In this document: positions 8,921 to 35,152 of the stretch, one piece after another
How positions within the stretch are numbered: the first letter of the stretch is position 1
Layout of the letters: each line of letters starts with the position of its first letter
Source of the DNA: a virus
Lineage: Duplodnaviria > Heunggongvirae > Uroviricota > Caudoviricetes
IMG/VR virus record: IMGVR_UViG_2563366879_000004
Coordinates: 1-35,746 of that record
Length of the DNA: 35,746 bases
Strand: one strand, 5' to 3'
Program-made: the position numbers and the translations under genes
Notes under the pieces: model-generated
Seen by the model: only the letters and a program-made list of their open reading frames with translations
Told to the model about the DNA's origin: nothing
The model's database searches: none

Positions 8921-8923
8921 TAA

Positions 8924-9625: not shown

Positions 9626-9667
9626 ATTCCCTCCTAAATATGTTCTCCTGCTTATTCCTAATTCAAT

Positions 9668-9709: not shown

Positions 9710-10104
9710 CGTTCCCCTGTAAAATTGAATTTTTGAAGTATGTATTTTTCTGAGAAAATTAAAAAATCCAGCTCAACTGAAATTGTACATCATCTATTTG
9801 GATATAGTTTTTGTTATACCAAAATATTCCTTTTCATCGCGAGGTAAAGATAACTGCAAATTGTAAGCACTAGAACGTTCATAGCAGACTTCCAACCACT
9901 GCTCACTCTCAGTCCAGCCTTGATGGATCGCGCAATATGCCCACTTGCGTCTTTTCGAACGATGCGCAGTTGCGGCCCAATGCATACCAAGGGCTTGTGA
10001 CGAGCGTTAACGTTCAAACGTCTGCTCTTGGCACAGAGCGGACTGTCAGATTAGGCTTTACTCTGTGCCATAGATATGTAATCTCACACCAGAGCTTATA
10101 CAAC

Positions 10105-10632: not shown

Positions 10633-10633
10633 A

Positions 10634-12655
10634 TTAAACGCTCGCTACATTATACCAGGTGCCATTTATATACTTTTGAACGGGTCTGTAATAAACACCC
10701 GCTATATTATCGGCAGAGTTGGACCCTGTATCCTGAACATTAATACCAGACAATACATGACCTGATGGGCACTGGAAATTCCATGTTTGCCAGTTGTTCA
10801 CTCCATAATATTGCTGTGAACCAAGTCGAACATCTTTCACATATCTGGAATCAAAGTTGCCATAGTTGCCGGGAATAACTTGCGAGCCACAAAGCCAGTT
10901 ACCGTTATTATCCATGTACGCCTGACCATCGGTGCCATTGGCTGTCCTTGAGTTATTAATCATGTAGATGCCAAATTGCTTGTTCCCCAGTCCACCTATC
11001 ATGAACTTGCGGTCAGCGTGATTCTGGCGAAGCAACGCCTGAGCGCTATCAGTGTTAACTATATTTTTCCCAAAGATAGCGTTGTTATCGCGCATCTGAA
11101 TCCACATACCATTACTGCTGTTAATAGCAAAACGGTCTGAAAGTGTCTCCCCTGAAACATTAAGGCCACTCCCCATCGAAACAGCGCCAGTAGCGTTATT
11201 AATCCATAATGGCCTTAATCCGTTATAAGTCCCCATGTTGTCACCGGAGTTTGTCAACATGAAGTATGTATTTGAACCATCATTACGAATAAAGAATCCG
11301 TAATTACCATAAGCAATACGTAGGCCGTTTGCTGATTTTGATATTATTTCGCCATTTACAATGGCATTGACAAGAACATACAAAGCATCCCATTTAAGAT
11401 TCATCAGGTCTTTTGTTGTAGTACTCTGGCGGCTTCTCCATTTGAAATATTCATTGCCATTATCCCCCGTTTCAAACCACATGAATGAATCAGTGTCACC
11501 ATCGGCATCATTTTTAAATCCAATCTTCGCCCAGTCAGTATTTCGAATCCAGGCAAGGATTGAGTCGTTTTCAAAAGTAAGTCCACCGGACAAGGTATCG
11601 CCATTTTTTTGCACGGCGTTCCCGGCTCGGTTTACCGTTTCCTGTAAACCGAGATATTCGATAACGGCGGCAACGGTCGATTTAGCCAGAATATCCCGCC
11701 CGACTTTTGTCAGGGTTGCCAGGCTGGCAACATCATTCCCCGTAAAATACGGAAGCCTGTCTGCCGCAGTAGCAAGCCCCGCCAGCGCCGTCAGGGTTGC
11801 ATCTTTCGGTTGCTTACCCGCAAGCGCATTAGTCATGGTGGTAGCAAAATTCGGGTCATTGCCCAGCGCCGCCGCCAGCTCGTTCAGCGTATTCAGTGCG
11901 TCAGGCGACGAGTCTACAAGGGCGGCAATCGCGGCCATAACGAAAGCCGTGTTTGCGATCTGAGTATTATTCGTTCCCTGTCGCGCAGTTGGCGTCGTTG
12001 GCGTTCCGGTCAGTGCAGGGCTGTTTAATGGCGCTTTCTTGTTCGTTTCATCCATTACCGTCTTAACGGCTTTCGGCGTTGCGGCCAGTGTTTCAGACGT
12101 GCTGTTGGTCGCGCTGCTTAGCTGAGTAAAACCTTTTGCGGTCAGCGAGGCGTCCGGGTGACGTCGTGACTGTTCGTGCTCTGCAATTTTGTCATCAACG
12201 TAATCCTGCGTTGCCATCACCGTTGTGGTGTCAATGGTCAGCTCCACTGAGGCCACACTGCTGACGATGATGACCATGCGGCAGGTCTGCGAACGCCCTG
12301 AGCCTTCGGCAAGGGCAGGCTTATAACTTTCGGCCATGTTCGCCACGGCAATTAACGTTCCTGCATCATCGTACAGGCCAAGCTCACGCATCCAGAAACC
12401 GCCCACCTCCGGCGGAATAACCAGCTCTGCGATAATATAATTACTGTTTCGTTTGTCCTGCCTGATTTTGTTCAGCGCATGTCGCCAGACTTCGTGGATA
12501 AGCCCGGTCTGTCCGGCATCCGGGACAGGCAATTTACCACCGCCATCCCCGACGGCCATCGTGGTAATGTTGACCTTCCGCCCTCCCGGTGCGGTTGCCG
12601 CTGCCAGCTTTGCTGCACCGGCAGTGGTGATAACGGTTCTGAATTTTGTGCTCAT
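10634..12655 (-). CDS. H: Tail fiber protein gpH
   Basis: 673-aa ORF; Ala/Thr-rich repeats in the middle; P2 gpH position (length here slightly different from the recalled 669 aa). Confidence 0.85.
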
Positions 12656-14449: not shown

Positions 14450-15081
14450 AGAGGACTCCCGGTTGTGCCGCCGCTGTCGCCGGGGTGTTTATGGGTATGC
14501 AGTACCTTACCGTTTGATGAGAGTTCACCGCCGGTGTGTTCAATGTTGCCGCGCATCGTCCCGCCCTTCTGTACTTCCAGCGTGCCGGTAATCAGCCTGT
14601 TGGTGCAGACCACCTCCGGTGTGTCCAGGGTGATGCGGGTTGACGCTTTCACCATGACCACCGGCACCGTGGCAGTAACAGAATCAGAAGCCGTCACGCT
14701 GGCCGTTTTAATTCCGCTTACCGTGAGCGCACTGGTTTCAGGTTCATACTCAATCACCGCCCCGTCAGGGAAACGGATATGCAGGGCATCCGCCGACGCA
14801 GACGGCGCGGGGTTATCGCCGGAATAAATCCCCGGCAGAACGAACGCCGTGTCGAGTTCACCGCCCACGGCCAGAATCAGCACCTGTTCCCCCACGGAAG
14901 GTGCCCACCATGTGCGCGAACGCCCGGCACGATGGGTCAGCCACTGAAGCCAGTCGGTGCACATGCCGCCGGTCTGCACACGGCAGCGACCGGCGTTAAG
15001 GTCGGTTTCGACGATAACGCCGGTGCGAATCATGTTGCGCAGTGCGCGCGCGAGTTCCTGAATATTTGCGAGAGTGTTCAT
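14446..15081 (-). CDS. V: Baseplate spike protein gpV
   Basis: ATG at 15081 gives 211 aa starting MNTLANIQELARAL, as recalled for P2 gpV; the supplied ORF extends to a TTG at 15117 with no SD. Confidence 0.8.
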   Translation of the reverse strand: MNTLANIQELARALRNMIRTGVIVETDLNAGRCRVQTGGMCTDWLQWLTHRAGRSRTWWAPSVGEQVLILAVGGELDTAFVLPGIYSGDNPAPSASADALHIRFPDGAVIEYEPETSALTVSGIKTASVTASDSVTATVPVVMVKASTRITLDTPEVVCTNRLITGTLEVQKGGTMRGNIEHTGGELSSNGKVLHTHKHPGDSGGTTGSPL

Positions 15082-15158
15082 AACGGGAAGGATGCCGCCG
15101 GACGATACCAGCAGCAATCATGGAGGACTCTGTCAGCCGTGACACAACATAATAAATA

Positions 15159-15914
15159 TTAGTTGTAACACTTCTCTATAATCTTCATACACTCCTCATG
15201 AGCTAAATCATGGCTGTCAAATTCTTTATTAAAAAAGAAGAAAAACGCCTTCTTAACCTGAGGCATTTCAATAAAAATAAATTCATCAACCTTATGAAAG
15301 AAATGAAAACTCTTGTTTGATGTTTCAAAAACCATCAAAGAATTATGTTTTTTATCCTTCCATTTCGACATCAGATTGCGTCGCGATTTTCTTATAATCC
15401 TGAAGACATCCTCCGGTGTCGTATCGACATTCCCCCAAAACATTGCAACCGGGAAGTTTGCAAGGAAAGGGATATAATCCCCCCCTTTATACCTGAGAAA
15501 GCGGGTCCGTAAATCCATTAATTGCAACTTAAAGCCCATGTATTGCAACCACCATATGATGCAATCATATTCATAATCTGTTAACTCATCGCCCCTCTTT
15601 TCCGTAAGAAATTTCTTCAGGTTATACTCAAACGCTCCCAGCAAATCAGAATTGCACACTCTGCATGCTGGTACAGTGGCTTTGATGTAATGAGTTGACT
15701 GATTATTCTTTTTATTAATTAAAAGTTTTTCAGCATTTGACTCAAAAGCCCACTGAGGAATAATGTGCTCACGAGTAATATCGCCAGAACTCCCGCATAA
15801 CACACATACATCAGCATTATGGTCAGCAATAATACAATCCATAACTTTCTTTTGAGAATGCTTTACTCTTTTTCTCAAAATGGAAAACTTTTTATCCACA
15901 AACACCCGTCTCAT
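15159..15914 (-). CDS. HNH-motif nuclease-domain protein (251 aa) at the orf30 variable position
   Basis: N-terminal CVLCG...REHIIP...N...CRVCN pattern (two CxxC pairs flanking an HNH-like core); ATGA overlap with the S stop; AT-rich relative to neighbours. Confidence 0.6.
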   Translation of the reverse strand: MRRVFVDKKFSILRKRVKHSQKKVMDCIIADHNADVCVLCGSSGDITREHIIPQWAFESNAEKLLINKKNNQSTHYIKATVPACRVCNSDLLGAFEYNLKKFLTEKRGDELTDYEYDCIIWWLQYMGFKLQLMDLRTRFLRYKGGDYIPFLANFPVAMFWGNVDTTPEDVFRIIRKSRRNLMSKWKDKKHNSLMVFETSNKSFHFFHKVDEFIFIEMPQVKKAFFFFFNKEFDSHDLAHEECMKIIEKCYN

Positions 15915-16369
15915 ATAACATCTTTCGATAGAATCACTAATAACTCCCTTTCTATCAATTGTATAGATTCCTTGTCAAAACCAAATAACTCACGAACAGG
16001 ATATTCCACCACAGCACTATTACGCCCCGGCTTATCCCTAAGCCCTAATTGATGTACCCGCGCAATTCGTTGTACTCCGCTGGCAAACGCCACCACCGCC
16101 GCACTCTCGCTACCTGTTGCTTTCATAAACCGGTTAGTGCGTAATTTCACAAACATTTCCCGCTTTATCCGGCCTTTCTTATTTCGCACTGGCTGGTTTT
16201 TTCTCGGTACATACGGCGTACCATCCGGGGCTTTTTGTAATTTAATTCGCTGCTGCTGGCGCTGGCGCAGTTTCTTCGCAATATCTACCGCCAGTCGCCG
16301 ACGCCCTGACGGTGACAGTGACTCAGTCAGTCCGGTCAGCCGGTCTTCAAAACGCTTAAACTCATTCAT
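15911..16369 (-). CDS. S: Tail completion protein gpS
   Basis: 152-aa ORF in P2 gpS position (recalled P2 length 150 aa). Confidence 0.8.
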   Translation of the reverse strand: MNEFKRFEDRLTGLTESLSPSGRRRLAVDIAKKLRQRQQQRIKLQKAPDGTPYVPRKNQPVRNKKGRIKREMFVKLRTNRFMKATGSESAAVVAFASGVQRIARVHQLGLRDKPGRNSAVVEYPVRELFGFDKESIQLIERELLVILSKDVI

Positions 16370-22290: not shown

Positions 22291-24063
22291 ATGACCATCA
22301 CCACAGACACCACTCTTTTACACGACCCGCGTCGTCAGGCGGCGCTGCTGTACTGGCAGGGGTTTTCCGTGCCGCAGATTGCCGCCATGTTGCAGATGAA
22401 ACGCCCGACGGTGCAGAGCTGGAAACAGCGCGACGGCTGGGACAGCGTTGCCCCCATCAGCCGTGTCGAAATGAGTCTGGAAGCGCGGCTGACCCAGCTC
22501 ATCATCAAACCGCAGAAAACCGGCGGTGACTTCAAGGAAATTGACCTGCTGGGACGCCAGATTGAACGACTGGCACGGGTCAACCGCTACAGCCAGACCG
22601 GCAACGAGGCAGACCTTAATCCGAACGTCGCTAACCGCAACAAAGGCGGGCGTCGCAAACCGAAAAAGAATTTTTTCAGTGACGAGGCCATCGAAAAGCT
22701 GGAGCAGATTTTCTTTGAGCAGTCTTTCGACTATCAGTTGCACTGGTATCGTGCCGGGCTTGAGCACCGCATCCGCGATATCCTGAAATCCCGCCAGATT
22801 GGCGCGACGTTTTATTTTTCCCGCGAGGCGCTGCTGCGCGCCCTGAAAACCGGCCATAACCAGATTTTTCTGTCGGCCAGTAAAACGCAGGCGTATGTGT
22901 TCCGTGAATACATCATCGCCTTTGCCCGGCTGGTTGACGTTGACCTGACCGGTGACCCGATTGTCCTGGGCAATAACGGCGCAAAACTGATTTTTCTCGG
23001 CACCAACTCCAACACCGCACAGAGCCATAACGGCGACCTGTACGTCGACGAGATTTTCTGGATCCCGAATTTTCAGGTACTGCGTAAGGTGGCATCTGGT
23101 ATGGCCTCACAGAGTCACCTGCGCTCGACCTATTTCTCCACCCCGTCCACGCTGGCGCACGACGCCTACCCGTTCTGGTCGGGTGAACTGTTTAACCGGG
23201 GACGCGCCAGCGCCGCCGAACGCGTGGAAATCGACGTCAGTCATAACGCCCTTGCCGGTGGGCTTCTCTGTGCGGACGGCCAGTGGCGACAGATTGTCAC
23301 CATTGAGGACGCCCTGAAAGGCGGCTGCACGCTGTTCGACATTGAGCAGCTCAAACGCGAAAACAGCGCCGACGATTTTAAAAACCTGTTCATGTGTGAA
23401 TTTGTTGACGACAAGGCATCGGTGTTCCCGTTCGAGGAGCTGCAACGCTGCATGGTCGACACGCTGGAAGAATGGGAAGACTATGCGCCGTTTGCCGCCA
23501 ATCCGTTCGGCTCCCGCCCGGTATGGATTGGTTACGACCCGTCACACCGTGGCGACAGCGCCGGATGCGTGGTACTGGCACCGCCGGTGGTGGCCGGTGG
23601 CAAATTCAGGATACTTGAGCGTCACCAGTGGAAAGGCATGGACTTTGCCACCCAGGCTGAATCCATCCGCAAACTCACCGAAAAATACAACGTCGAATAC
23701 ATCGGAATTGATGCCACCGGCCTCGGTGTCGGCGTGTTCCAGCTCGTGCGCTCGTTCTATCCCGCCGCGCGTGATATCCGCTACACGCCGGAAATGAAAA
23801 CCGCAATGGTGCTCAAGGCAAAAGACGTTATCCGCCGTGGCTGTCTGGAATACGACGTCAGCGCCACCGACATCACCAGCTCGTTTATGGCTATCCGCAA
23901 GACCATGACCAGCAGCGGACGCAGCGCCACGTATGAGGCCAGCCGCAGCGAGGAAGCCAGCCACGCCGACCTCGCCTGGGCGACCATGCACGCCCTGTTA
24001 AATGAGCCACTCACCGCCGGTATCAGCACCCCGCTGACATCCACCATTCTGGAGTTTTACTGA
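22291..24063 (+). CDS. P: Terminase large subunit (ATPase) gpP
   Basis: ATG at 22291 with GAGGT 5 nt upstream gives 590 aa (MTITTDTTLLHD...), P2 gpP length. Confidence 0.9.
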   Translation: MTITTDTTLLHDPRRQAALLYWQGFSVPQIAAMLQMKRPTVQSWKQRDGWDSVAPISRVEMSLEARLTQLIIKPQKTGGDFKEIDLLGRQIERLARVNRYSQTGNEADLNPNVANRNKGGRRKPKKNFFSDEAIEKLEQIFFEQSFDYQLHWYRAGLEHRIRDILKSRQIGATFYFSREALLRALKTGHNQIFLSASKTQAYVFREYIIAFARLVDVDLTGDPIVLGNNGAKLIFLGTNSNTAQSHNGDLYVDEIFWIPNFQVLRKVASGMASQSHLRSTYFSTPSTLAHDAYPFWSGELFNRGRASAAERVEIDVSHNALAGGLLCADGQWRQIVTIEDALKGGCTLFDIEQLKRENSADDFKNLFMCEFVDDKASVFPFEELQRCMVDTLEEWEDYAPFAANPFGSRPVWIGYDPSHRGDSAGCVVLAPPVVAGGKFRILERHQWKGMDFATQAESIRKLTEKYNVEYIGIDATGLGVGVFQLVRSFYPAARDIRYTPEMKTAMVLKAKDVIRRGCLEYDVSATDITSSFMAIRKTMTSSGRSATYEASRSEEASHADLAWATMHALLNEPLTAGISTPLTSTILEFY

Positions 24064-25097
24064 TGAGCAAGAAAAAAGGGAAAACACAGCAACCTGCGGC
24101 AAAAAAAATGACCGCCAGCGCCCCGAAAATGGAGGCATTCACCTTTGGTGAGCCAGTGCCGGTACTCGACCGCCGTGACATTCTGGATTACGTCGAATGC
24201 ATCAGTAACGGCAGATGGTATGAGCCACCGGTCAGCTTTACCGGTCTGGCAAAAAGCCTGCGTGCTGCCGTGCATCACAGCTCACCGATTTACGTCAAAC
24301 GTAATATTCTGGCTTCAACGTTTATCCCGCACCCGTGGCTTTCCCAGCAGGATTTCAGCCGCTTTGTGCTGGATTTTCTGGTGTTCGGTAATGCGTTTCT
24401 GGAAAAGCGTTACAGCCCCACCGGTAAGGTCATCAGACTGGAAACCTCACCGGCAAAATATACCCGCCGTGGCGTGGAGGAGGATGTTTACTGGTGGGTG
24501 CCGTCCTTCAACGAGCCGACAGCCTTCGCGCCCGGTTCCGTGTTTCACCTGCTGGAGCCCGATATTAATCAGGAGCTGTACGGCCTGCCGGAATATCTCA
24601 GCGCCCTTAACTCTGCCTGGCTGAATGAGTCGGCCACGCTGTTCCGCCGCAAGTATTACGAAAACGGCGCACATGCCGGATACATCATGTACGTTACCGA
24701 TGCCGTGCAGGATCGCAACGATATCGAAATGCTTCGCGAAAACATGGTTAAGTCGAAAGGCCGCAATAACTTTAAAAATCTGTTTCTCTATGCCCCGCAG
24801 GGGAAAGCCGACGGCATTAAAATTATCCCCCTCAGTGAAGTGGCAACGAAGGACGATTTTTTTAATATCAAAAAATCCAGCGCCGCTGACCTGCTGGACG
24901 CGCACCGCATCCCCTTTCAGTTGATGGGCGGCAAGCCGGAGAACGTCGGGTCGCTGGGTGATATTGAGAAAGTGGCAAAGGTCTTTGTCCGCAATGAGCT
25001 TATCCCGTTACAGGACAGGATTCGGGAAATAAACGGCTGGCTCGGTCAGGAGGTCATCCGCTTTAAAAACTACTCACTGGACACAGACAACGGCTGA
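24063..25097 (+). CDS. Q: Portal protein gpQ
   Basis: 344-aa ORF; TGATG overlap with the P stop; P2 gpQ length. Confidence 0.9.
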   Translation: MSKKKGKTQQPAAKKMTASAPKMEAFTFGEPVPVLDRRDILDYVECISNGRWYEPPVSFTGLAKSLRAAVHHSSPIYVKRNILASTFIPHPWLSQQDFSRFVLDFLVFGNAFLEKRYSPTGKVIRLETSPAKYTRRGVEEDVYWWVPSFNEPTAFAPGSVFHLLEPDINQELYGLPEYLSALNSAWLNESATLFRRKYYENGAHAGYIMYVTDAVQDRNDIEMLRENMVKSKGRNNFKNLFLYAPQGKADGIKIIPLSEVATKDDFFNIKKSSAADLLDAHRIPFQLMGGKPENVGSLGDIEKVAKVFVRNELIPLQDRIREINGWLGQEVIRFKNYSLDTDNG

Positions 25098-25265: not shown

Positions 25266-25284
25266 AGTGCTTTCCCCGCCTCGC
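25266..25284 (-). other. cos: cos cohesive-end site (19 nt, GGCGAGGCGGGGAAAGCAC on minus strand)
   Basis: Plus strand gtgctttccccgcctcgcc is the reverse complement of the recalled P2 19-nt cohesive end; located just beyond Q as in P2. Confidence 0.8.
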
Positions 25285-25434
25285 CCGCCCGCTTAATGGG
25301 GCGGTTTTGATGCAGTTGTATAACGACGCAGACTTCCTGACAGTTCTATCAACTCATAACAAAAAAAAGCATTACAGATGAATGCAAAATCATGCAACTA
25401 ATGATGGCGTACAGGCTAGGTGAGAAAATAAATG

Positions 25435-26235
25435 CTATTTCATCAGTCCTATAAAAGCTGCTGTCATGCTACCCAATGCACCAATAGCAGCAAATAACGT
25501 TGCCCAAAACATGCTTTTTTGGCTACGAATATTCTCATTATATCGTTGTTTTTCATTATTGAAGTGATTTAACGTATTAATTGCTTTTCCGGTGGGCTTA
25601 TAACCATCTCGAGTCTTTGAAATGTCCCCACTCTCTACAAGGGAATCCAGACATAAGCGAAGTTCTTTTATGAGTCGAGAATAATCATCATGGTAGATCC
25701 ATAAACGTCCTGCCACATCATTCATAATTAGAGTCTCACTGAATGGTTTTTCCCCTTGTTGCTCTCGATAAATTCTGACAATTGCAGCCAATACCGTCAT
25801 TACATCAGTTATCTCCTGCTTGCGTTGTCGATACAAATACTTCTCACGACTTAGCTTTTTATTTTGACGATCCGCTATTCTTCTAAATCTAAGTACATTA
25901 AAATAAGATAAATCATCCAATGAGTCAAACTTCAATTCATGCGCATGATAATAATAAATTCCAGAAAAGGAATTTGATGTAAGTCGTTCTGGTTTAAGAA
26001 TTGTATCAATATTGAAAGTTTTATTCTGATGATTCCACTTCTTAACCTTTATAATTCCGTTTGAATAACTATCAAAAAGATAGTCATTACCCTCGTCATC
26101 CTTAATGTAAACGGAATACATATCGTAATGAATGGCACTCTCATACATTAAACTAATTTTGCCATTTTCAGGGATCTTCTTTGACTCAAAAACTTTCAGA
26201 AACTTTACAACATCAACTTTATTTTTATGCCTCAT
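25435..26235 (-). CDS. Hypothetical 266-aa protein with a single C-terminal transmembrane anchor; candidate effector of the adjacent RT system
   Basis: AT-rich ORF 165 nt downstream of the RT gene on the same strand; C-terminus MFWATLFAAIGALGSMTAAFIGLMK is strongly hydrophobic; no recognised catalytic motif. Confidence 0.6.
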   Translation of the reverse strand: MRHKNKVDVVKFLKVFESKKIPENGKISLMYESAIHYDMYSVYIKDDEGNDYLFDSYSNGIIKVKKWNHQNKTFNIDTILKPERLTSNSFSGIYYYHAHELKFDSLDDLSYFNVLRFRRIADRQNKKLSREKYLYRQRKQEITDVMTVLAAIVRIYREQQGEKPFSETLIMNDVAGRLWIYHDDYSRLIKELRLCLDSLVESGDISKTRDGYKPTGKAINTLNHFNNEKQRYNENIRSQKSMFWATLFAAIGALGSMTAAFIGLMK

Positions 26236-26400
26236 ACATTCAGCCTTGACTGTAAACCACCATATTAAATGATTGCACTAACGACTCGTACTACTTATTG
26301 TTCAACCCAGTCAGAACTGAAAGCAAACTTTTGCACTAACTGGGTTTCCATCATAATATATCGATACTAATAAAATCCGATATTATTATATTTTAGTGTA

Positions 26401-27351
26401 TTAAACCGATGTATTTGCTTTCAACGTCAATACCTTCGATCTATAACGTTTTTCAATAACCCCCATTGAATATAAACGACCAAATAATTTCTTTGCTGTT
26501 CTTGTATCTTTAGCTTGTTCTACATCTTTTATTATTTTCCAAAGCTCTATTTCTCTAGCCATAAGATAATGCTGTTCGTTCCTAACCTTTAAGCTATCCC
26601 CAAATACTATCACTCCTGTCACTAGTTTAGGCTTATCCCCAGCATATAATTTCGTTTTAGTTGGATGCATAACGTGTCCATGCTTATTAATAATCTTACG
26701 AATCACGCTGCAAAACAATCGATTTACATTATCTCCAGAAAAAGTAAGATCATCGACATAAACTGTCATTTTCACACGAAACTTCTCACAAAGTTGATTC
26801 ATTTCATCAAACATTCTGGAATTTGCAAAATATGCTAATGGCATACTAATCCGACTACCCGTTGGCAATCGTTCATGACAGGTACATATATGAGATAAAA
26901 TATCAGCCACATCTGGCGACATTTTCATTATTGAGAAAAAGAAAGAAAATATCATTTCTCTTGTTGTTGACGGAAAAAAAGATCTAATATCTGTAGTCAT
27001 CAACTTCTGATGATTGAGATGTGCTTTAGCATTTGTTATGTTAGAGCAACTTTTTTTACCAGAGTGTAAATATTCGGGCATAGCTATACGCAATAATAGA
27101 CTCGCAATACGTGTATGCACTACATCTAATTTTTCTAAAGGCTTTTGTATTTTCCGTATTTTATTTTTTTTAGAAAGCTGTTCAAAAATAGAGTAATTAC
27201 CCTCATCCCTTTTCAAAACTGATAGGTCATTGATACTAACGCAGAGCAAGCTAGCCAACTTTTTTTTACTTTTAAGTTTATAAAGTGGCGAATCCGTAAT
27301 AGGATAAGATTTATTTTTAGTTGAAACCTTCAGCTTAATCCTTTTTTTCAT
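26401..27351 (-). CDS. Retron-type reverse transcriptase (316 aa)
   Basis: RT motifs in order: NAKAH (retron NAxxH), DIRSFFPS, LPTGSRISMPLAYF (LPxG...SxP), YVDD catalytic box (VYVDDLTFS), and KLVTGVIV (retron VTG motif); size typical of retron RTs; very AT-rich. Confidence 0.8.
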   Translation of the reverse strand: MKKRIKLKVSTKNKSYPITDSPLYKLKSKKKLASLLCVSINDLSVLKRDEGNYSIFEQLSKKNKIRKIQKPLEKLDVVHTRIASLLLRIAMPEYLHSGKKSCSNITNAKAHLNHQKLMTTDIRSFFPSTTREMIFSFFFSIMKMSPDVADILSHICTCHERLPTGSRISMPLAYFANSRMFDEMNQLCEKFRVKMTVYVDDLTFSGDNVNRLFCSVIRKIINKHGHVMHPTKTKLYAGDKPKLVTGVIVFGDSLKVRNEQHYLMAREIELWKIIKDVEQAKDTRTAKKLFGRLYSMGVIEKRYRSKVLTLKANTSV

Positions 27352-27637
27352 TTCTTTTACTTACCCACTCTAGTATATCCAGAACTTTCCCTGCCAGTTT
27401 TAAACGTAAACTTTTGGATAATCGTCCTTGTGTCCCTAATGATTCTGAAAAAAAGACCAAAGAGGATACTGGCATGTCGAAATGGGAAGCATAACGCTGC
27501 AAAATATCAATCGACGGCACCCATAGTCCGCTTTCAATCTCTACTATTCTGCTTTTTGGAATACCTAAAGATGATGATAAGTCAACTATTGATTCTTTAT
27601 GGTATTGCCTTATTAAACGAAGGGCTTTATGCAACAT
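27335..27637 (-). CDS. XRE-family helix-turn-helix protein (about 100 aa) overlapping the RT start
   Basis: HTH-like segment IVDLSSSLGIPKSRIVEIESG; preferred ATG at 27637 has GGAG 6 nt upstream (the supplied ORF starts at 27649); 3' end overlaps the RT start by 17 nt, suggesting translational coupling. Confidence 0.65.
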   Translation of the reverse strand: MLHKALRLIRQYHKESIVDLSSSLGIPKSRIVEIESGLWVPSIDILQRYASHFDMPVSSLVFFSESLGTQGRLSKSLRLKLAGKVLDILEWVSKRNEKKD

Positions 27638-27673
27638 AGGCAACTCCATCTTGTTGAAACTAGGGAGGACGCA

Positions 27674-27829
27674 TTACTCATCTCCCCCTTCAAAGAAGTC
27701 AACTGCGCGAGTGATCCAATAAAGTAGTCTAATAAGCCACTTAATTACACCCCAAGCGTTAGGAGTCTTCTTTTTCCGGTTTAACTTGTTTTGCGCCTGC
27801 TGTTCGTTGGTTACTTTATCATTTTTCAT
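27674..27829 (-). CDS. Possible 51-aa peptide with basic N-terminus and one hydrophobic helix (MKNDKV...WGVIKWLIRLLYWITRAV...)
   Basis: ATG at 27829 preceded by AAGGAG at 6-nt spacing; lies within the supplied 97-aa ORF 27674..27967; could instead be non-coding leader or ncRNA sequence. Confidence 0.35.
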   Translation of the reverse strand: MKNDKVTNEQQAQNKLNRKKKTPNAWGVIKWLIRLLYWITRAVDFFEGGDE

Positions 27830-28100
27830 GATCTGCTCCTTATGTCCACGGTGTGCAAACGATATGTCTGCTCCAGCACCATGGCTCGCCCTCATAAGGA
27901 TGAGATTGAACAGCACCAGCTCCCTGCTCCACGAACCCTTTGTCGCCCAAAGGGTTCGAATACCCATACGCTATGCCGCGTGAATCAGAGACTCCTGTCG
28001 CTGACAGAGGCGTTGCGCGGGGTAAATGTTAGAAAGCATTAGCTTTCCACGGGCAATAAATACCCAATTGATGGCGATTTATCTCACTAACTAACCAATG
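27830..28100 (-). ncRNA. Candidate structured leader or retron msr/msd-like ncRNA upstream of the RT operon (boundaries uncertain)
   Basis: Perfect 11-bp stem cgaaccctttg/caaagggttcg (27932-27958), 8-bp stem 28030-28049, imperfect stem 27992-28010, direct repeats of cgtgga; retron ncRNAs are normally encoded just upstream of the RT operon. The a1/a2 repeats could not be confirmed by eye. Confidence 0.3.
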
Positions 28101-28271
28101 ATTGAATCATACCAAGTAAACCGTTGTATTTGATCTCTCCTTATATAATTTTTTGTTATTAATAAATATAATTAAATAACAAAATGAAATAAAACTAATC
28201 TTCAACCGTCTCATCACAAGAAATATCAACAAATCAAGAATATCGTTTGATTATCTAGTCTTTCCAATTCA

Positions 28272-30566
28272 TTAAAATAAAAACAATGCTTCATCTTCAA
28301 TTCCCGGCCAAACATCAGCAACCGGATACGTGAATTTTTTCCCGTCATAATTTACAGTTGCTCCACGCGCCAGCGCCTCAAGTTCCCATCGCTGCGGCCT
28401 GATACCGTTCTGAGCAAGGTCAACGCGGATACGGGTAATTTGCATTCGTTCTGACCGGGTCAGTCTGGCCGATGGCGCTATTTCATGTGGTTTTAACGGT
28501 TTTCCGTTTCTTTGCTGGCGGTTTGGTCTTCTCAGTCCGTGTTTTAATGCCCCCCTGAGCGCCCTCACGACCTCCGGGTCACTCCATTCGATGACACCGT
28601 CATCAACCAGATTAAGCACTGCTGCGGCGTTCTCAGTAGGTGTGGGAGCCGGTAACGAAGTATCACCACCGGTGAGCTTTCCACAGTTATTGACAGGACT
28701 CCGAGGCGCGGCGATGCCGCTTTTTAAAGTCAAAGGCTCAACGACCGGAACTTTCGGAACAATGCGCCAGTCCGTCGTTCTGGTGATATGAATATGACGC
28801 GCGCCGAGATGCGGTGCGTAAATGCCGACCACTCTCTCGACCTCTTCCTCGTACTCGTTAACGTCATCCGACGGGCTACGGGCGACTCTGACAGTCTGAC
28901 AATCGCGCGGAACATTTGCCCCACCCTGCGCGCTGATATACAACGCAAAATCACCTCTGTCTGCGGCGGCGCGTGCAGCCTCGACGCGCTCGTCAAACTC
29001 ATCAGCAATGCTGACGCCGCGAGGCAATTTGCGTAGTTCACGGTAAGCCCCCATTGTCGGCAGACCAACCGTTTTAAATTGCGGAATGCGCCACGTTGAC
29101 GCCCATGCGGTAACAGCCGCAGCAGTATCTTTCAGCGGCCTGCCGGTATCGTTATCGAGCTGACCATCCAGTGCATAGCCATCGATGTTTTTTGAGATGT
29201 ATTTCGCGATATATCCCGCAGCACCGCCCCGGTTAAGGTGTTTTGCCTGAAAACGGTTTCGCGCGGCTCCTCTTTCGTCGCCATCCTCTTTGAGCGCATA
29301 GCGACGCATGATTTCGATAATCTGGTTACGCTGGCGTGGATTACAAAAAAGCATCATATGCCAGTGCGGCGTTCCGTCGTGGTGTGGCTCGACGACACGC
29401 AAACCGTAGACCTGTAAATCATTATCCTTGAATGCCGTGCGCATCAGGCTCCAGATGCGGCAGAGATAACGCTGCGCATCCTTTGGATTAAATGCCTCAT
29501 CGTTCCAGCCGTGATTAAGCTGAACGGTTTTACTTTCGCCTTTTCTGACCTGACGAGTCGGGTGATACTTTGACGGCGCGGTCAGCGTGATAAACATCCC
29601 CACATCACCCTCTGCGGCGGCGTAACGCTCAATACCGGCAATGGTGTTCATCAGCTCCATCCGGCGAATTTCAGGATTAGAAATACTGCCCATCACCTTA
29701 CTGATAAGGTCGATGCGCTCGCCGGTTTCCCTGTTTTCAAGGTCACACGATTTAAGAAATTCCAGATTTGCCTGGCGGCGCGCACGCACATCACGAATGG
29801 CGTGTTTACTGGCATAAGGAGAACGGTCTTTATTGACCTCCCCGACAGCTATCAGTAACGCTTCATGCCAGCGCATACGCTGGCCTTTAAGCTGATGAGT
29901 CCACCACTCATCGTTAAACAGACGGGCAATGGCAGAATATGCCTGCCTCGTGGTTATCTGTCCTTTACGGTATTTTTTCCAGTAGAGCGGGGAAATATTG
30001 AAAGCACGTGCAGCGCCAGCAACATGACCATACAGGTGAGCCTGCGCCTCATCCGTAAACAGTGATTCTTTTTCGCCATGCGCATCCACCCAGGCATCGC
30101 TGAGTTCCTCATACATCATGAAAAGCTGCGATGAGATACGGGCAGCAAACTTTTTCAGCTCCTTGTCATTCATTCCAGGCAGGCGCGCATAGTGGTCACG
30201 CTCTGCCAGAAACAGCAACGACGCGTCGGTGTTCATTTCATTGCGCTGATTAACGCGCTCAATGCGCGGCCATAAACGACGCTGAAAAGTGGATGTGAGG
30301 AAATAAAACCCGTGCAACGGGCTTTTATTGCGCCGGATGTAGTCATAGCGTGAAGTAAACAGCGAGCGCAAAAAGTAAGGCAGGCGGTTAATCGTGGATA
30401 AAACACCTTGCACCTGACGCATCTCGTCACGTGTAAGGGGTCTTTCGCGCCCGACAGCCTCGCGTGGCGCATTCCATGCATAAGCACCGGTAAACGCCTT
30501 ACCGGTGCCTGCGGCAAACGCAGACGGAGGTACGCAGGTGTATTGCTCCTGGAAAGAATGACTCAT
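28272..30566 (-). CDS. A: Replication initiation protein gpA (rolling-circle nickase)
   Basis: 764-aa ORF (recalled P2 gpA about 761 aa); N-terminal region resembles the recalled gpA sequence; position between orf83-side genes and the cos-proximal hotspot. Confidence 0.88.
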   Translation of the reverse strand: MSHSFQEQYTCVPPSAFAAGTGKAFTGAYAWNAPREAVGRERPLTRDEMRQVQGVLSTINRLPYFLRSLFTSRYDYIRRNKSPLHGFYFLTSTFQRRLWPRIERVNQRNEMNTDASLLFLAERDHYARLPGMNDKELKKFAARISSQLFMMYEELSDAWVDAHGEKESLFTDEAQAHLYGHVAGAARAFNISPLYWKKYRKGQITTRQAYSAIARLFNDEWWTHQLKGQRMRWHEALLIAVGEVNKDRSPYASKHAIRDVRARRQANLEFLKSCDLENRETGERIDLISKVMGSISNPEIRRMELMNTIAGIERYAAAEGDVGMFITLTAPSKYHPTRQVRKGESKTVQLNHGWNDEAFNPKDAQRYLCRIWSLMRTAFKDNDLQVYGLRVVEPHHDGTPHWHMMLFCNPRQRNQIIEIMRRYALKEDGDERGAARNRFQAKHLNRGGAAGYIAKYISKNIDGYALDGQLDNDTGRPLKDTAAAVTAWASTWRIPQFKTVGLPTMGAYRELRKLPRGVSIADEFDERVEAARAAADRGDFALYISAQGGANVPRDCQTVRVARSPSDDVNEYEEEVERVVGIYAPHLGARHIHITRTTDWRIVPKVPVVEPLTLKSGIAAPRSPVNNCGKLTGGDTSLPAPTPTENAAAVLNLVDDGVIEWSDPEVVRALRGALKHGLRRPNRQQRNGKPLKPHEIAPSARLTRSERMQITRIRVDLAQNGIRPQRWELEALARGATVNYDGKKFTYPVADVWPGIEDEALFLF

Positions 30567-31570
30567 TCACATACACCGGCATAGACACTACTGCAAACGG
30601 CTTTATCATTCGCCGAAGCCAGTAAATCAAACTGAGTACCCCCACGCGTTGTCATTGTCCAGTCATGGTAGGTTTCTATTCCGTATGCCTCGACTGTTAC
30701 AATCTCAATACGACGTTCTGCGCGTAACGGATCATGTGTGGATGGGAAAAAAGTGGAATTTCCCCGACGGGAGCACGACGCAACCAGTCGTTCCCATTCA
30801 GCAACCCGCTTTATTTCCTCCGGCCACCGGCGAAAAATTTCTGCCAGTTCAGATTTACGGACATGAATACATGGCATACAACCAACACGGCCACACCCCT
30901 GCTGATATAACGGATTTGGCTTAATGTCATGTCTTCTGGCTATTGCAAATACATCTTCATGCTTCCAGTGCAAAATCGGGCGATATACATGCAATCCGGG
31001 GGTGTTGTCTGCATCCTCTTCCCAGACAGGTAAAGCTGCGCGTGATGGCGATTCCTGAGCACGCACTCCCTGCCAGCTAATCACTTCCTCAAATTCATTG
31101 AGTAAAGGCAGGATTACCTGAGAACGCACGGGTTCATGTTTCAGTTCAAATGTGCAAAATCTGGCTTTGGTTGATGGGAAACGCCCCTTCCACAGACACA
31201 AATCAAGAAACGGGATACCCGTTGGTTTGAGAATTTCCAGCGCACAACTGATGCGCTGGTGCGCTTCTTCTTCCGACATTCCACAATCGTTAACCAACAA
31301 ATCAGGCCATTTGGTCTGGATAAACTTGCGCTTTGATTCAATCCGGCAGGAAAAATCAGCCCTGACCCTTTGAATTGGGCCAAGCCGTTTTTCCAGATAA
31401 TCCAGATATTTCATTGTCTGTGGATGTTCATGTCCCGTATCAGCAAAAACCGGCAATATGGGTACATTTTCTTCAATAGCGACAAGCCACTGAGCAAGGC
31501 TGTCCTTTCCACCTGAAACAAAAATAACATTGATGGTATTTTCAGTATGGCAACGAGCATCAGTAATCAT
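30563..31570 (-). CDS. PAPS-reductase-family PP-loop protein (335 aa), accessory gene between orf83 and A
   Basis: N-terminal SGGKDS PP-loop motif; C-terminal cysteine cluster CGRVGCMPC; ATGA-type overlaps with both neighbours; absent from the recalled P2 map. Confidence 0.65.
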   Translation of the reverse strand: MITDARCHTENTINVIFVSGGKDSLAQWLVAIEENVPILPVFADTGHEHPQTMKYLDYLEKRLGPIQRVRADFSCRIESKRKFIQTKWPDLLVNDCGMSEEEAHQRISCALEILKPTGIPFLDLCLWKGRFPSTKARFCTFELKHEPVRSQVILPLLNEFEEVISWQGVRAQESPSRAALPVWEEDADNTPGLHVYRPILHWKHEDVFAIARRHDIKPNPLYQQGCGRVGCMPCIHVRKSELAEIFRRWPEEIKRVAEWERLVASCSRRGNSTFFPSTHDPLRAERRIEIVTVEAYGIETYHDWTMTTRGGTQFDLLASANDKAVCSSVYAGVCE

Positions 31571-31845
31571 TCAGACGCTCCTCTGGAGAACGCCTCTGAA
31601 CAACGCTTGCTGAGCTGCTCAACCTGCGTGTTTAAATCGGCAAAAGATTTTGCGCTTCCGGTCAGAATATCGTGATGCATCAGGCCGGAAACGAGCTGGC
31701 TTAATTTCGGATAATAACCAACCACCGCCAGCCATTCCTGACCGGCGTTTTTACCGCTTTCCGCTCTCTTTTTCTCGTGGAGAATAAACTGAAAGCTGTC
31801 ACTGGTAACGACATAACGTTCGCCAATTTCAATACGAATACTCAT
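31567..31845 (-). CDS. Hypothetical early protein (P2 orf83 position)
   Basis: 92-aa ORF in the early operon, synteny with P2 orf83. Confidence 0.6.
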   Translation of the reverse strand: MSIRIEIGERYVVTSDSFQFILHEKKRAESGKNAGQEWLAVVGYYPKLSQLVSGLMHHDILTGSAKSFADLNTQVEQLSKRCSEAFSRGASE

Positions 31846-32066
31846 GCCGTTCTCCGGTAATGCTTGTTTTTTGCTTCAAAGACTGACTGGCAGGAAACAC
31901 AACGCGTGGCTGACGGATAAGCCGCACGACGGGCAGCAGGTATTGGCGCGTCACACTCTTCGCAAACCAGCGCAGAAACACCGCAATGTTTTACCCTTGC
32001 CGCGTTAATCTGGCGCTCCAGTAATTCAGCCTGTTGTTCCTGAATAAAATCTACGTTGTCCGGCAT
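31842..32066 (-). CDS. TraR/DksA-family C4 zinc-finger protein (P2 orf82 position)
   Basis: 74-aa ORF with CEEC...CVSC zinc-finger pattern; overlapping stop/start with neighbours. Confidence 0.65.
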   Translation of the reverse strand: MPDNVDFIQEQQAELLERQINAARVKHCGVSALVCEECDAPIPAARRAAYPSATRCVSCQSVFEAKNKHYRRTA

Positions 32067-32371
32067 TACCAGCTCCTTTTGTCGTTCAGCTTCTTAAATT
32101 CATCAGCACAATAACTGGCGATTTCTGTCGTTAATTTCGTCAGTTCATCCACGGCGGAGATTTGCTTGTGAAATACAGCGCGTTTAACAAGTAAATTGAC
32201 CACATCAGACAGGAGGTTTAATTCGTTCTGATAAATCGCGATAACAGACTCAGTTATTTCGCGTTTTTCTTTATCAAGACAAAGTTGAATAAGAGACAAA
32301 TCACCATTTTTCATAACGGCGATTTTTAAGGCGTTATTCAGTAATACAACTGAATGAGAACAGGACATCAA
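32066..32371 (-). CDS. Hypothetical early protein (P2 orf81 position)
   Basis: 101-aa ORF, translationally coupled within the early operon. Confidence 0.6.
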
Positions 32372-32592
32372 AGCACCTCCCCGCGAGACAATCCGATATT
32401 GTGAAATTTTTCCGACTCCTGACTGATCAGCTCGACTATCTCCACGCGGGATAACTCCGCCTTTGTGATGTGGCGAATCATGGCGTCAAGATGAGAAGAA
32501 AAGCGCGTCGCAGCGTCGGCCTGTGCTTCGGTTCTGGACTGTTGCAGCAGTAATGCGTATTTACCGCACTGATTTTCAGAAACTGTATGCAT
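32368..32592 (-). CDS. Hypothetical early protein (P2 orf80 position)
   Basis: 74-aa ORF, synteny. Confidence 0.55.
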
Positions 32593-32655
32593 GACTTTCT
32601 CCAGGCAAAAAGAAGCCCCGCACGATTAAGTGCGTTAAAAACTCTGGTTAATTAT

Positions 32656-33156
32656 TTAATGCAGATATTGCTCTGGTTTTACCGACGTCAGAATTGTCGG
32701 TGCATACTCAAACAGGCTGAATAATTCACGTAATGCACGGAATAAAGCATCACGCCAGTAACATGACTCTTCATTAATTCGCCAGTATGGCTGGTTGAAT
32801 TCTTTTTCAGTCAATCCGGCATGCATAAATAAAGTACGGCGCTGACTGACAGTTAAAAAGCTAATATATGCATACTCACTTGCACCGACCTGACGGCGTT
32901 TTGAGAATGCCCCACGCAATTCATCAATTGCACAAACCAGCCGTTCACGTTCGACGTCGTTCATTTCTTCAAAACGCATCGTTGCGTGACGTTGTTTTAA
33001 CTGCGCATGAAAGCAAACTGTTAGCCGTTCGCGCTCCATCATCTGATTATAATAATCACATGTATCCTGCCAGCGAGGAACGGCAAGATGCTTACCAATT
33101 ATCCGGCGCATGGTTGCTGGCTGTTTTTCAACGAGATTGAGCGTCATCACTGTCAT
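32656..33156 (-). CDS. B: Replication protein gpB (helicase-loader-like)
   Basis: ATG at 33156 with GGAGG 8 nt upstream gives 166 aa, P2 gpB length; the supplied ORF starts 2 codons earlier. Confidence 0.8.
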   Translation of the reverse strand: MTVMTLNLVEKQPATMRRIIGKHLAVPRWQDTCDYYNQMMERERLTVCFHAQLKQRHATMRFEEMNDVERERLVCAIDELRGAFSKRRQVGASEYAYISFLTVSQRRTLFMHAGLTEKEFNQPYWRINEESCYWRDALFRALRELFSLFEYAPTILTSVKPEQYLH

Positions 33157-33323
33157 TTCCATACCCTCCGGCTTTTCAGAAAGGTCAGAGCCTTTTTTAA
33201 CGGACTCTGTTTTTTGGTGCGGATAATGATTCCCTTACGCCCCTTACCGTGGGTGATGGTGAAGTCAATCGCCCTGGGGCTTTCGTTACGCAGTAACTGA
33301 GCAATACAACGAGGCTCATTCAT
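33153..33323 (-). CDS. Hypothetical small early protein (P2 orf78 position)
   Basis: ATG at 33323 preceded by AAGGAG at 7-nt spacing; 56 aa; the supplied ORF starts at an upstream GTG. Confidence 0.6.
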   Translation of the reverse strand: MNEPRCIAQLLRNESPRAIDFTITHGKGRKGIIIRTKKQSPLKKALTFLKSRRVWK

Positions 33324-33333
33324 ACGGTTCTCC

Positions 33334-33609
33334 TTAACGTGGTTCACCGAGACCTAACCACATCAACCAGCCGTCACGAATCTCTTTAGGGCGGCTTTCA
33401 TAAGCCAGTTTTAGTCCGTTATTCCATGCCGGAAGGTATACCCAATATTCACCTGCACGACCTGAAGCTGATTGTGGATCGGTCATATCAATTACAGGCA
33501 GCTTTCCTTTATCGATCATCCGACGAACCGCTCCTGTCGATTTTCCTATTAGTTTTGCGAACTCCTGATAAGGAATCGCATCAGTCATGAGTGTTACTTG
33601 CTTGCTCAT
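33334..33609 (-). CDS. cox: Cox, excisionase and repressor of Pc
   Basis: 91-aa ORF, first gene of the early operon facing C; P2 Cox length. Confidence 0.85.
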   Translation of the reverse strand: MSKQVTLMTDAIPYQEFAKLIGKSTGAVRRMIDKGKLPVIDMTDPQSASGRAGEYWVYLPAWNNGLKLAYESRPKEIRDGWLMWLGLGEPR

Positions 33610-33690
33610 GTCGTCCCCCAGCCCTCATGAATTGCGTTTAATGCCTTATAATGCCTTTTAGTGCCCACATCCAAGCACTAAACAATCTAC

Positions 33691-33730
33691 ATCTAAACTA
33701 AATACTATTGAGATCTAAACACTATGTCAA
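33691..33730 (-). promoter_or_regulatory. Early promoter Pe (-35 TTGACA, 17-bp spacer, -10 TAGTAT on minus strand) flanked by two 8-bp direct-repeat operator half-sites (atctaaac)
   Basis: rc of 33725-33730 is TTGACA; rc of 33702-33707 is TAGTAT; exact 17-bp spacer; atctaaac at 33691-33698 and 33713-33720 (22 bp apart) flank the -10, the arrangement known for the P2 C operator. Confidence 0.6.
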
Positions 33731-34023
33731 ACACGATAAGCGAGAAGATAGTCTTAATGCGAAAATCAGAGTATTTGAGCAGACAACAACTTGCTGATTT
33801 AACAGGGGTTCCGTATGGCACGCTGAGTTACTATGAAAGTGGTCGTTCAACACCTCCAACAGATGTCATGATGAACATCCTGCAGACCCCACAATTCACC
33901 AAATACACTTTATGGTTCATGACCAATCAGGTCGCTCCTGAGTCCGGGCAAATTGCGCCCGCTCTCGCACACTTTGGGCAAAACGAAACAACGTCGCCCC
34001 ACTCCGGTCAAAAGACTGGTTAA
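33724..34023 (+). CDS. C: Immunity repressor C
   Basis: 99-aa ORF with HTH segment SRQQLADLTGVPYGTLSYYESG; P2 C length; divergent from cox. Confidence 0.88.
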   Translation: MSNTISEKIVLMRKSEYLSRQQLADLTGVPYGTLSYYESGRSTPPTDVMMNILQTPQFTKYTLWFMTNQVAPESGQIAPALAHFGQNETTSPHSGQKTG

Positions 34024-34138
34024 CAATTCATCGTGAATATATTCATCACAAGTGCCTACTATTGGTGGCTAAATTTCAGCCACCACGAAAAAAGCGATTA
34101 GTAGTCGCAAAAAAACACACCACTCGGAGGGTTTTCTG

Positions 34139-35152
34139 ATGGCAATCAAAAAACTCGATGATGGTCGATATGAAGTGGACATCCGCCCTACTGGACGTAA
34201 TGGAAAACGCATCCGTAGGAAGTTTGATAAGAAAAGCGAAGCTGTCGCTTTCGAGAAATACACGTTGTACAACCACCACAATAAAGAATGGCTATCAAAA
34301 CCAACAGACAAGCGACGTCTGTCGGAGCTGACACAGATCTGGTGGGATTTAAAGGGTAAACACGAAGAGCATGGGAAATCTAATCTTGGAAAAATTGAAA
34401 TCTTCACAAAAATAACGAATGACCCATGCGCATTTCAAATTACGAAATCGCTTATCAGCCAGTACTGCGCCACCCGAAGAAGTCAGGGTATTAAACCTTC
34501 GAGTATCAATCGTGATTTAACATGTATTAGCGGCATGTTTACAGCCCTGATTGAAGCGGAGTTATTCTTTGGTGAGCACCCTATCAGAGGGACAAAAAGG
34601 CTTAAGGAGGAAAAACCAGACACAGGCTATCTCACGCAGGAAGAAATTGCCTTACTGCTTGCTGCTCTTGACGGCGACAACAAAAAGATTGCGATTCTTT
34701 GCCTGAGCACTGGAGCACGTTGGGGAGAAGCAGCTCGTTTGAAAGCAGAAAATATCATCCATAACCGCGTCACGTTTGTTAAAACGAAAACAAACAAACC
34801 ACGCACCGTCCCGATCTCAGAGGCTGTTGCCAAAATGATCGCGGATAACAAACGAGGTTTTTTATTCCCTGATGCTGATTACCCTCGCTTCAGACGAACA
34901 ATGAAAGCAATAAAACCGGATTTGCCAATGGGGCAAGCCACACATGCACTAAGGCACAGCTTTGCCACTCATTTCATGATTAATGGAGGAAGTATTATCA
35001 CGCTACAACGGATACTAGGTCACACGCGGATTGAGCAAACTATGGTTTACGCTCATTTTGCGCCAGAGTACCTTCAGGACGCCATTTCTCTTAATCCGCT
35101 AAGAGGTGGTACTGAGGCCGAGAGTGTCCACACAGTGTCCACAGTAGAGTAA
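34139..35152 (+). CDS. int: Tyrosine integrase
   Basis: 337-aa ORF with C-terminal catalytic signature (HALRHSFATH... and Y in MVYAHFAPEY); ends 80 nt from the attR core. Confidence 0.9.
   Translation: MAIKKLDDGRYEVDIRPTGRNGKRIRRKFDKKSEAVAFEKYTLYNHHNKEWLSKPTDKRRLSELTQIWWDLKGKHEEHGKSNLGKIEIFTKITNDPCAFQITKSLISQYCATRRSQGIKPSSINRDLTCISGMFTALIEAELFFGEHPIRGTKRLKEEKPDTGYLTQEEIALLLAALDGDNKKIAILCLSTGARWGEAARLKAENIIHNRVTFVKTKTNKPRTVPISEAVAKMIADNKRGFLFPDADYPRFRRTMKAIKPDLPMGQATHALRHSFATHFMINGGSIITLQRILGHTRIEQTMVYAHFAPEYLQDAISLNPLRGGTEAESVHTVSTVE

Follow-up and report, generated by a model that had tools for sequence, protein, structure and literature searches.

A predicted tail-anchored protein encoded beside a type VI retron forms a separable single-gene cassette in the cos-proximal hotspot of a P2-like prophage

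Introduction

Type VI retrons have been defined in two preprints (one of them 10.64898/2026.04.27.721009) as systems with the order ncRNA-SP-HTH-RT. In Retron-Sen3, SP is a toxin that is neutralised by the HTH antitoxin (10.64898/2026.04.27.721009), and SP is also the toxin of Retron-Vpa2; the described operons of both stop at the RT gene. The cloned operons of Vpa2, Eco12 and Sen3 defend by themselves, and neither preprint describes a gene located 3' of RT.

A second point of reference is the variable region between the gpA and Q genes of P2-like prophages, which has been validated as a hotspot of defence genes (Rousset et al. 2022, PMC9122126). Table S5B of the same study (PMC9122126) lists a 260-aa E. 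coli protein as the single-gene 'system 68', with no domain, '1 TM' and 62 occurrences; system 68 was not found among the systems tested there.

Here, we describe a homologue of this protein, referred to as T266, that is encoded in a 35,746-nt stretch of viral DNA (IMG/VR record IMGVR_UViG_2563366879_000004; hereafter, the window) representing a P2-like prophage of E. coli, with terminase, portal and capsid genes at 19-25 kb. In the window, T266 stands beside a canonical SP-HTH-RT retron of type VI, the type to which Retron-Vpa2, Retron-Eco12 and Retron-Sen3 belong. Although already listed as PHROG 7611 and as Rousset system 68, the T266 family is uncharacterised: no phenotype is recorded in the literature for any of its members, no paper testing the family was found, and a literature search by accession number revealed no paper that mentions it.

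Results

T266 is a real gene located next to cos

The gpA replication endonuclease gene (28272-30566) and the portal gene Q (24063-25097) of the window enclose an AT-rich island of four genes, all on the minus strand, which encode a 51-aa ORF, an HTH protein, an RT and T266 (cf. Table 1). A preliminary description of the window had reported the last of these as an AT-rich, 266-aa open reading frame, positioned on the same strand as RT and separated from it by 165 nt. All these statements held, as the GC content of T266 is 34% versus about 55% in the flanking phage genes, and the gap (26236-26400) extends up to the RT stop codon. The frame corresponds to a real gene that is under purifying selection: the probability that a frame of 266 codons stays open by chance at the composition of T266 is about 1.4e-10, while dN/dS amounts to 0.08-0.15 against homologues and to 0.15 within the window lineage. 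The length of the protein is unchanged across 29 homologue clusters of 48-98% identity, and leaders related to that of T266 were found in loci devoid of a retron.

On its other side, T266 is followed by a sequence that we take to be a P2-type cos core, and this makes T266 the final gene ahead of cos. The consensus was assembled in part from P4 sequences in Table S2 of Rousset et al. (PMC9122126). The site between gpA and Q, beside cos, matches the location of PHROG 7611 and system 68. The terminator-like hairpin between T266 and cos was not reported by a consensus terminator scan, probably because its stem holds too few G-C pairs. Three other islands of the window, at 8000-11500, 15000-16000 and 31000-35000, are likewise AT-rich (GC 0.36-0.46 versus about 0.56 elsewhere), and they may be further cargo slots, e.g., a Z/fun-type slot or the tail-fibre region.

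Table 1. Coordinates of T266, its predicted domains and the neighbouring features in the window.
Feature	Position	Strand	Basis
P2-type cos core (reverse complement of GGCGAGGCGGGGAAAGCAC)	25267-25285	.	pattern match
Intrinsic-terminator-like hairpin GCATT..AATGC + T8, 50 nt past T266 stop	25361-25385	-	read from sequence
T266 (266-aa ORF, PHROG 7611)	25435-26235	-	ORF, phrog_7611 match, homologues, dN/dS
Predicted C-terminal transmembrane helix (tail anchor), residues 242-265	25441-25512	-	hydropathy and family conservation
Winged helix (three helices and beta-hairpin wing, conserved TGKA wing motif), residues 145-214	25594-25803	-	predicted
Six-stranded small beta-barrel, SH3/KOW/Tudor-like, residues 38-103	25927-26124	-	predicted
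T266 leader, cassette-specific, purine-rich ribosome-binding region (AAGG) before ATG	26236-26277	-	sequence
Junction box GTTGAACAAtaAG-N-CGAGtCGTTAG	26278-26306	-	alignments A1, A3
19-pair hairpin, 5-nt loop	26304-26347	-	covariation and recurrence
Type VI retron RT, neighbour outside T266 cassette	26401-27351	-	PADLOC RT_VI 1.8e-105; Pfam RVT_1
Type VI retron HTH protein	27335-27649	-	PADLOC HTH_VI 2.5e-31; literature
SP, 51 aa, expected retron toxin	27674-27829	-	RefSeq 156-nt CDS in identical loci; phrog_15287 (SP-sized proteins) 6.3e-34

T266 is predicted to combine a small barrel and a winged helix with a tail anchor

The phrog_7611 profile matched T266 over residues 7-266 (E=4.5e-146), and a profile search against 1.84 billion representatives returned 678 relatives at E<=0.001 (family representatives clustered at 50% identity) and 264 at E<=1e-10, nearly all of them 245-300 aa long. 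The protein had been described as a soluble, charged region ending in one strongly hydrophobic helix, and both features were recovered. There are 42 K+R and 33 D+E in the first 240 aa, and the only hydrophobic segment (Kyte-Doolittle, 19-residue window, maximum 1.9) spans residues 242-265, with a single Lys after it; there is no signal peptide. Since a hydrophobic segment ending <=25 residues from the C-terminus was present in 122 of 130 full-length representatives (only eight had one elsewhere), the tail anchor is a hallmark of the family; it is also kept in plasmid homologues at 25-42% identity. From these sequence features, we infer that T266 is a tail-anchored inner-membrane protein, the N-terminus of which would reside in the cytoplasm.

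A remote-homology search, with structure prediction as one route, had been proposed as a check on T266. Structure prediction yielded a fold, and a BFVD fold search gave no match at E<=0.001. In the AlphaFold model (pLDDT 79 for the whole protein and 84 for the N-terminal 140 residues; whole-protein pTM 0.52), the barrel (38-103) is followed by a long helix (111-137), the winged helix (145-214), which comprises both the three-helix bundle and the beta-hairpin wing, and a continuous helix (216-265) that ends as the membrane segment. As modelled, T266 would thus place its barrel and winged helix ahead of a tail anchor, and the pairing of a winged helix with such an anchor is an unusual architecture for bacteria. 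DNA binding is not to be assumed, because winged helices also mediate protein contacts.

That the soluble region contains no recognised motif, as first stated, was confirmed in that no Pfam, NCBIfam or PADLOC family fits T266. Sequence searches of Pfam, NCBIfam, PADLOC and PDB sequences, as well as a tblastn search of INPHARED phages, gave nothing usable. The PADLOC-DB 2.0 models produced zero matches for T266 or most of its homologues, and marginal ones for distant homologues only (WH_III-A, E=0.0034; PDC-M35B, E=0.002). We found no catalytic motif in T266 and no sign of an enzyme. A conserved YYYHAHE stretch was considered as a metal-binding or catalytic motif and rejected as probably not being one, because homologues at 25-43% identity lack it. 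Distant homologues have lost HAHE but retain the TGKA wing, the LW.YH motif and the basic SR.K..YR helix.

T266 is a sporadic cargo gene of prophages, plasmids and islands

System 68 represents the same family, as its 260-aa type protein is 55% identical to T266, occupies the same locus, the last before cos, and bears the same single C-terminal transmembrane helix; the window allele differs in being a divergent lineage that stands behind a retron and not behind orf97. Homologues of 54-71% identity were found at this very place, with no retron, in prophages of Enterobacter, Klebsiella, Cronobacter, Pantoea and E. coli, always as the final gene ahead of cos and the portal gene. About half of the loci have a 243-aa membrane protein as the 5' neighbour, six have gpA itself, and the rest have Tum/DinI or another protein. 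This 243-aa neighbour is Orf97 of phage 186 (PHROG 3403; 5138-5869 in L004 and 3105-3836 in L167, which is phage 186), the annotation of which reads 'expression from plasmid blocks 186 infection'. Plasmids and islands encode homologues of lower identity (22-42%), which lie among TA genes, beside HEPN, DUF2971 and Mrr-type REase genes, or near a Shedu gene.

On Klebsiella plasmids, one distant subfamily (about 28% identity; L021 4088-5804, L168/L169 4121-5837) belongs to a conserved block of five genes, in which it lies 17-65 nt 3' of a restriction-endonuclease-like gene of the Mrr_cat type. A Shedu SduA_C gene is nearby in L168, and the subfamily may be a nuclease-linked variant of T266.

The T266 cassette is separable from both the retron and orf97, and it resides in a known defence hotspot. 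In our reading, to which we assign a probability of roughly 0.55, T266 is an autonomous single-gene cargo cassette of the cos-proximal gpA-Q variable region, and most likely an exclusion or abortive-infection protein; for an anti-phage role as such, we consider the odds about even. Location in the hotspot is weak evidence for defence, because about one-fourth of the P2 hotspot loci hold non-defence cargo, e.g., partition systems (PMC9122126). Such cargo is also in keeping with a different view, namely that T266 is a non-immune, membrane-tethered regulator or helper of the prophage itself, which could act in induction as a distal member of an SOS operon, in packaging near cos, or in interference with P4-type satellites. 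This view is further favoured by the following observations: (i) the LexA-controlled tum-orf97 transcription unit of 186-like prophages has T266 inserted in it, 5' of the terminator t95b, so that T266 may be SOS-induced there, (ii) T266 is always the prophage gene nearest cos, and (iii) its predicted fold includes a winged helix. However, T266 is sporadic, being present in 16 of 5426 complete E. coli genomes and at 3 of 121 sampled junctions (see below), and its occurrence on plasmids and islands among TA, nuclease and Shedu genes involves no P2 biology. Such a distribution is more in line with portable conflict cargo than with a housekeeping function in the phage, and we regard a helper function as unlikely.

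The neighbouring type VI retron is complete without T266

The preliminary description had put T266 forward as the prime effector candidate of the adjacent RT. This proposal did not survive, as the retron has an SP of its own, the expected toxin, and is mostly found without T266, and T266 is mostly found without the retron. The clade-VI RT, with a catalytic site that reads YVDD, and the Cro/C1-type HTH protein speak to the type of the retron, not to T266. The type VI effector position, between the ncRNA and HTH, is taken by SP, which is kept in every related retron locus; T266 lies 3' of RT and is unrelated to SP. The neighbouring retron is complete as SP-HTH-RT. A 97-aa ORF at the SP position turned out to be an over-extension, since RefSeq annotates there a 156-nt CDS (51 aa). 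About 440 nt between gpA and SP (within 27674-28271, minus strand) are non-coding and are expected to contain the promoter and the msr-msd/hyRNA.

The retron was detected in 100 of 5426 complete E. coli genomes, and only 10 of these 100 also contained T266; those 10 represent one lineage, as they share >=98% nucleotide identity. The other roughly 90 genomes harbour the same retron in the same hotspot with no T266. In them, homology ends with the stop codon of RT, beyond which there are small unrelated ORFs, and O157-type loci likewise contain other ORFs. A T266-family ORF was also absent from seven further viral contigs with an RT at 78-81% identity, and none of nine loci in this identity range contained one. 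Conversely, among more than 70 T266 loci, the retron stood beside T266 in the window lineage and in L019 alone, so that no conserved co-occurrence of T266 with RT was seen. T266 is probably independent of the retron, and the fallback reading of the preliminary description, an independent gene of putative Abi type, fits the evidence better than the effector reading does.

The exceptional locus L019 (Acerihabitans arboris, NZ_WUBS01000011.1, 4119-7778) comprises SP-HTH-RT, with an RT 74% identical to that of the window, then a 257-aa T266 homologue about 460 nt 3' of the retron and a DUF2971-like gene. Its flanks encode VirB4/6/8/9/10-like type IV secretion proteins and are not of P2 type, which makes it the only non-P2 instance of the retron and T266 side by side. 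Both modules are typical defence-island cargo.

We also considered that the type VI retron uses T266, in the window lineage, as a second or accessory effector that is co-transcribed with RT and activated by msDNA, RT or HTH, with membrane damage that would add to SP toxicity or replace it. The window displays no canonical terminator between RT and T266, so co-transcription, and hence functional coupling in this lineage, is possible, and in Acerihabitans a distant homologue (36% identity) is again found 3' of a type VI retron, in a non-P2 setting. Yet the retron is complete without T266, with SP being the toxin in the literature, about 90% of the related retron loci lack T266, and almost every member of the T266 family lacks a retron. 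Moreover, the hairpin and box between RT and T266 are a generic cassette junction, which in L079 also follows the RT, that of another retron locus, with different cargo next to it. In Acerihabitans, the spacer is an unrelated sequence, and the identity of 36% for the T266 homologue versus 74% for RT argues against co-inheritance as one unit. Taken together with the fact that T266 is no described component of type VI retrons, shows no homology to SP and does not co-vary in its presence with the retron, these data render a role as retron effector quite improbable, even if SP and T266 have in common that they are small, non-enzymatic and hydrophobic in their C-terminal part.

T266 and orf97 are not an obligate pair

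As 64 of 78 orf97 loci are devoid of T266, the pairing of the two genes is not obligate. The T266 homologue of APEC O78 is separated from orf97 by a canonical terminator and by a site resembling a promoter (TTGACT-17-GAGATT). In two loci, L018 and L034, orf97 has been lost precisely: about 60 nt 5' of the T266 start, the orf97 start codon and ribosome-binding site, together with a t95a-type terminator, have become joined almost directly to T266, which has therefore been retained there without orf97. That T266 and the 243-aa Orf97 constitute a two-gene module, the window copy of which was orphaned once the retron replaced its partner, is highly improbable. In favour of such a module, Orf97 is encoded directly 5' in about half of the sampled T266 loci, each of the two is a membrane protein, and the annotation of Orf97 mentions a block of 186 infection. 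Against it, most orf97 loci lack T266, and T266 is found with no orf97 on plasmids, in the L018/L034 deletions, directly behind gpA, and behind Tum/DinI. Moreover, the pair is split by a terminator in APEC O78, Rousset 2022 counts the T266 homologue as a single-gene system, and the supposedly orphaned window copy is still under purifying selection in its lineage.

A covarying hairpin and a conserved box mark a general cassette junction

The preliminary description had pointed to an 8-bp inverted repeat (aacccagt/actgggtt) in the gap between RT and T266. The repeat is present at 26304-26311 and 26339-26346, where it forms the core of a 19-pair stem with a 5-nt loop (cf. Table 1), but it proved not to be a retron-linked feature, belonging instead to a general junction element of the hotspot. 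The hairpin is abutted by a box with the consensus GTTGAACAACGAG-N3-5-CGAGGCGTTAG, exact matches to which were found in at least 120 viral contigs. Of the 19 pairs, 14 change on both sides among 16 distinct sequences, and pairing is preserved in 87.7% of cells versus 31-50% in slid controls, with 0 of 500 shuffles reaching the observed value. When elements were sampled by the exact box pattern alone, a hairpin with an MFE <= -15 kcal/mol was found just 5' of 120 of the 121 independently sampled boxes. Among these 121 elements, 24 follow gpA, 9 follow orf97 and 3 precede a T266-family gene.

The possibility that the hairpin and box are a private 5' UTR of T266 was rejected, since 52 of the 64 T266-less orf97 loci carry both right after orf97. 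In phage 186, the element is positioned between orf97 and the terminator t95b, about 210 nt from cos (3840-3914 in L167); it maps to about 5990-6069 in L079, to 3815 and 4220 in L117, and to 2842 and 3815 in L153. It follows a 68-aa gene in APEC O78 and Tum/DinI in L031. L117, L133 and L153 contain true second copies between successive cassettes; in L032 and L093, what looked like another copy of the box lay within coding sequence and was a false positive.

Similarity between loci stops at the 3' edge of the box. The filled slot past the box measures 450-2430 nt, and its cargo varies among loci, including T266, a 242-aa membrane protein family, an HNH protein, a DUF2971/PDC-S31 protein and several proteins without a match. 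The recurrence of the element with varied neighbours and cargo therefore identifies it as a general junction of the P2/186 cos-proximal hotspot, and the hairpin and box belong to neither RT nor T266.

As to the individual occupants of the slot, the 242-aa membrane protein family was observed past the box in 22 distinct contexts, the slots of L133, L097, L121, L160, L144 and L127 hold uncharacterised single-gene cassettes, and slot proteins of 311, 313, 429, 297 and 182 aa had no Pfam or PADLOC match.

Several other interpretations of the element were examined and dismissed. The hairpin is not an intrinsic terminator, as there is no U-tract on the sense strand and t95b of phage 186 lies 3' of it. 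A second stem inside the box (AACAACG/CGTTaGTT) is unsupported, its substitutions not being compensatory (alignment A3), and an alternative GCGGGG/CCCCGC pairing displays no covariation. The box makes a poor sigma-70 promoter (TTGAAC-17 nt-GTTAGT, in which the second base of the -10 hexamer is not A), and no similarity was visible between it and the annotated replication origin of phage 186. A search of Rfam with the segment 25000-28400 (E<=1) gave no match, and the 165-nt spacer is thus neither a known RNA family nor an msr-msd.

The attC sites of integrons are imperfect inverted repeats at cassette boundaries with a GTTRRRY core. The GTTGAAC of the box fits this core, and a match of seven nucleotides may be due to chance. 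No dedicated IntI-type integrase turned up in the loci inspected, which do encode the P2 integrase and the HUH nuclease gpA. A 2026 survey of the hotspot states that the mechanism of cassette exchange is unknown and mentions no such element, nor did we find a hairpin-and-box element described in the hotspot literature.

Discussion

The present analysis indicates that T266 is a cargo gene in its own right. If it acts against phages, as we favour, its barrel and winged helix would be tethered at the inner membrane on the cytoplasmic side, where they would bind a component of the incoming or replicating phage, either DNA or protein. T266 might then (a) hold the bound component at the membrane or (b) oligomerise via its stalk and transmembrane helices, leading to membrane damage, and in both cases it would execute phage exclusion or abortive infection alone. 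The membrane-damage step is the more doubtful part of this proposal, and we consider it less likely than not. Expression by read-through from an upstream unit is plausible, the unit being the retron operon in the window and the LexA-controlled tum-orf97 operon in 186-like prophages; this reading is based solely on the lack of a U-tract terminator 5' of the gene.

Prophages are known to encode superinfection-exclusion membrane proteins, such as P22 SieA, lambda RexB and P4 gop, and membrane-linked DNA-sensing defences include Kiwa (KwaA/KwaB) and Zorya (ZorAB with ZorC/D). T266 would resemble Kiwa and Zorya, by analogy only, in placing a nucleic-acid-binding module at the inner membrane, the point of phage DNA entry, but those systems are composed of several proteins with unrelated folds, whereas T266 is a single protein of 266 aa with no PADLOC match. 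Phage 186 Orf97 and T266 are both accessory membrane proteins of prophages, encoded next to cos in adjacent cassette positions. There is no sequence relationship between them, and Orf97 has an extracytoplasmic domain and carries its transmembrane helices at the N-terminus, in contrast to the tail-anchored T266, with its winged helix and a soluble part that is predicted to be wholly cytoplasmic.

Two practical points follow for work on such loci. A membrane protein encoded beside a defence RT is not automatically its effector, and as type VI retrons carry their own toxin, T266 should not be included by default in studies of this retron. At the same time, T266 stands for a large uncharacterised family, with 678 representatives at 50% identity, that is distributed over defence hotspots and plasmid islands, and it offers a cheap single-gene target for phage-challenge screens.

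The junction element is a less expected result than T266 itself. A broader proposal, that T266 is the first representative of a new immune family whose members act as single proteins (tail-anchored sensors with SH3-like and winged-helix domains) and is linked with the junction element as a site of cassette exchange, is speculative and, in our estimation, rather unlikely in its entirety. If it is true, members of the T266 family would sense phage DNA or protein at the inner membrane and themselves execute exclusion or abortive infection, and the covarying hairpin with its GTTGAACAACGAG..CGAGGCGTTAG box would be the site or anchor for the swapping of P2/186-like cargo, i.e., an undescribed cassette-exchange element. 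The junction element provides a testable handle on how the cassettes of the P2/186 hotspot are delimited, expressed or exchanged.
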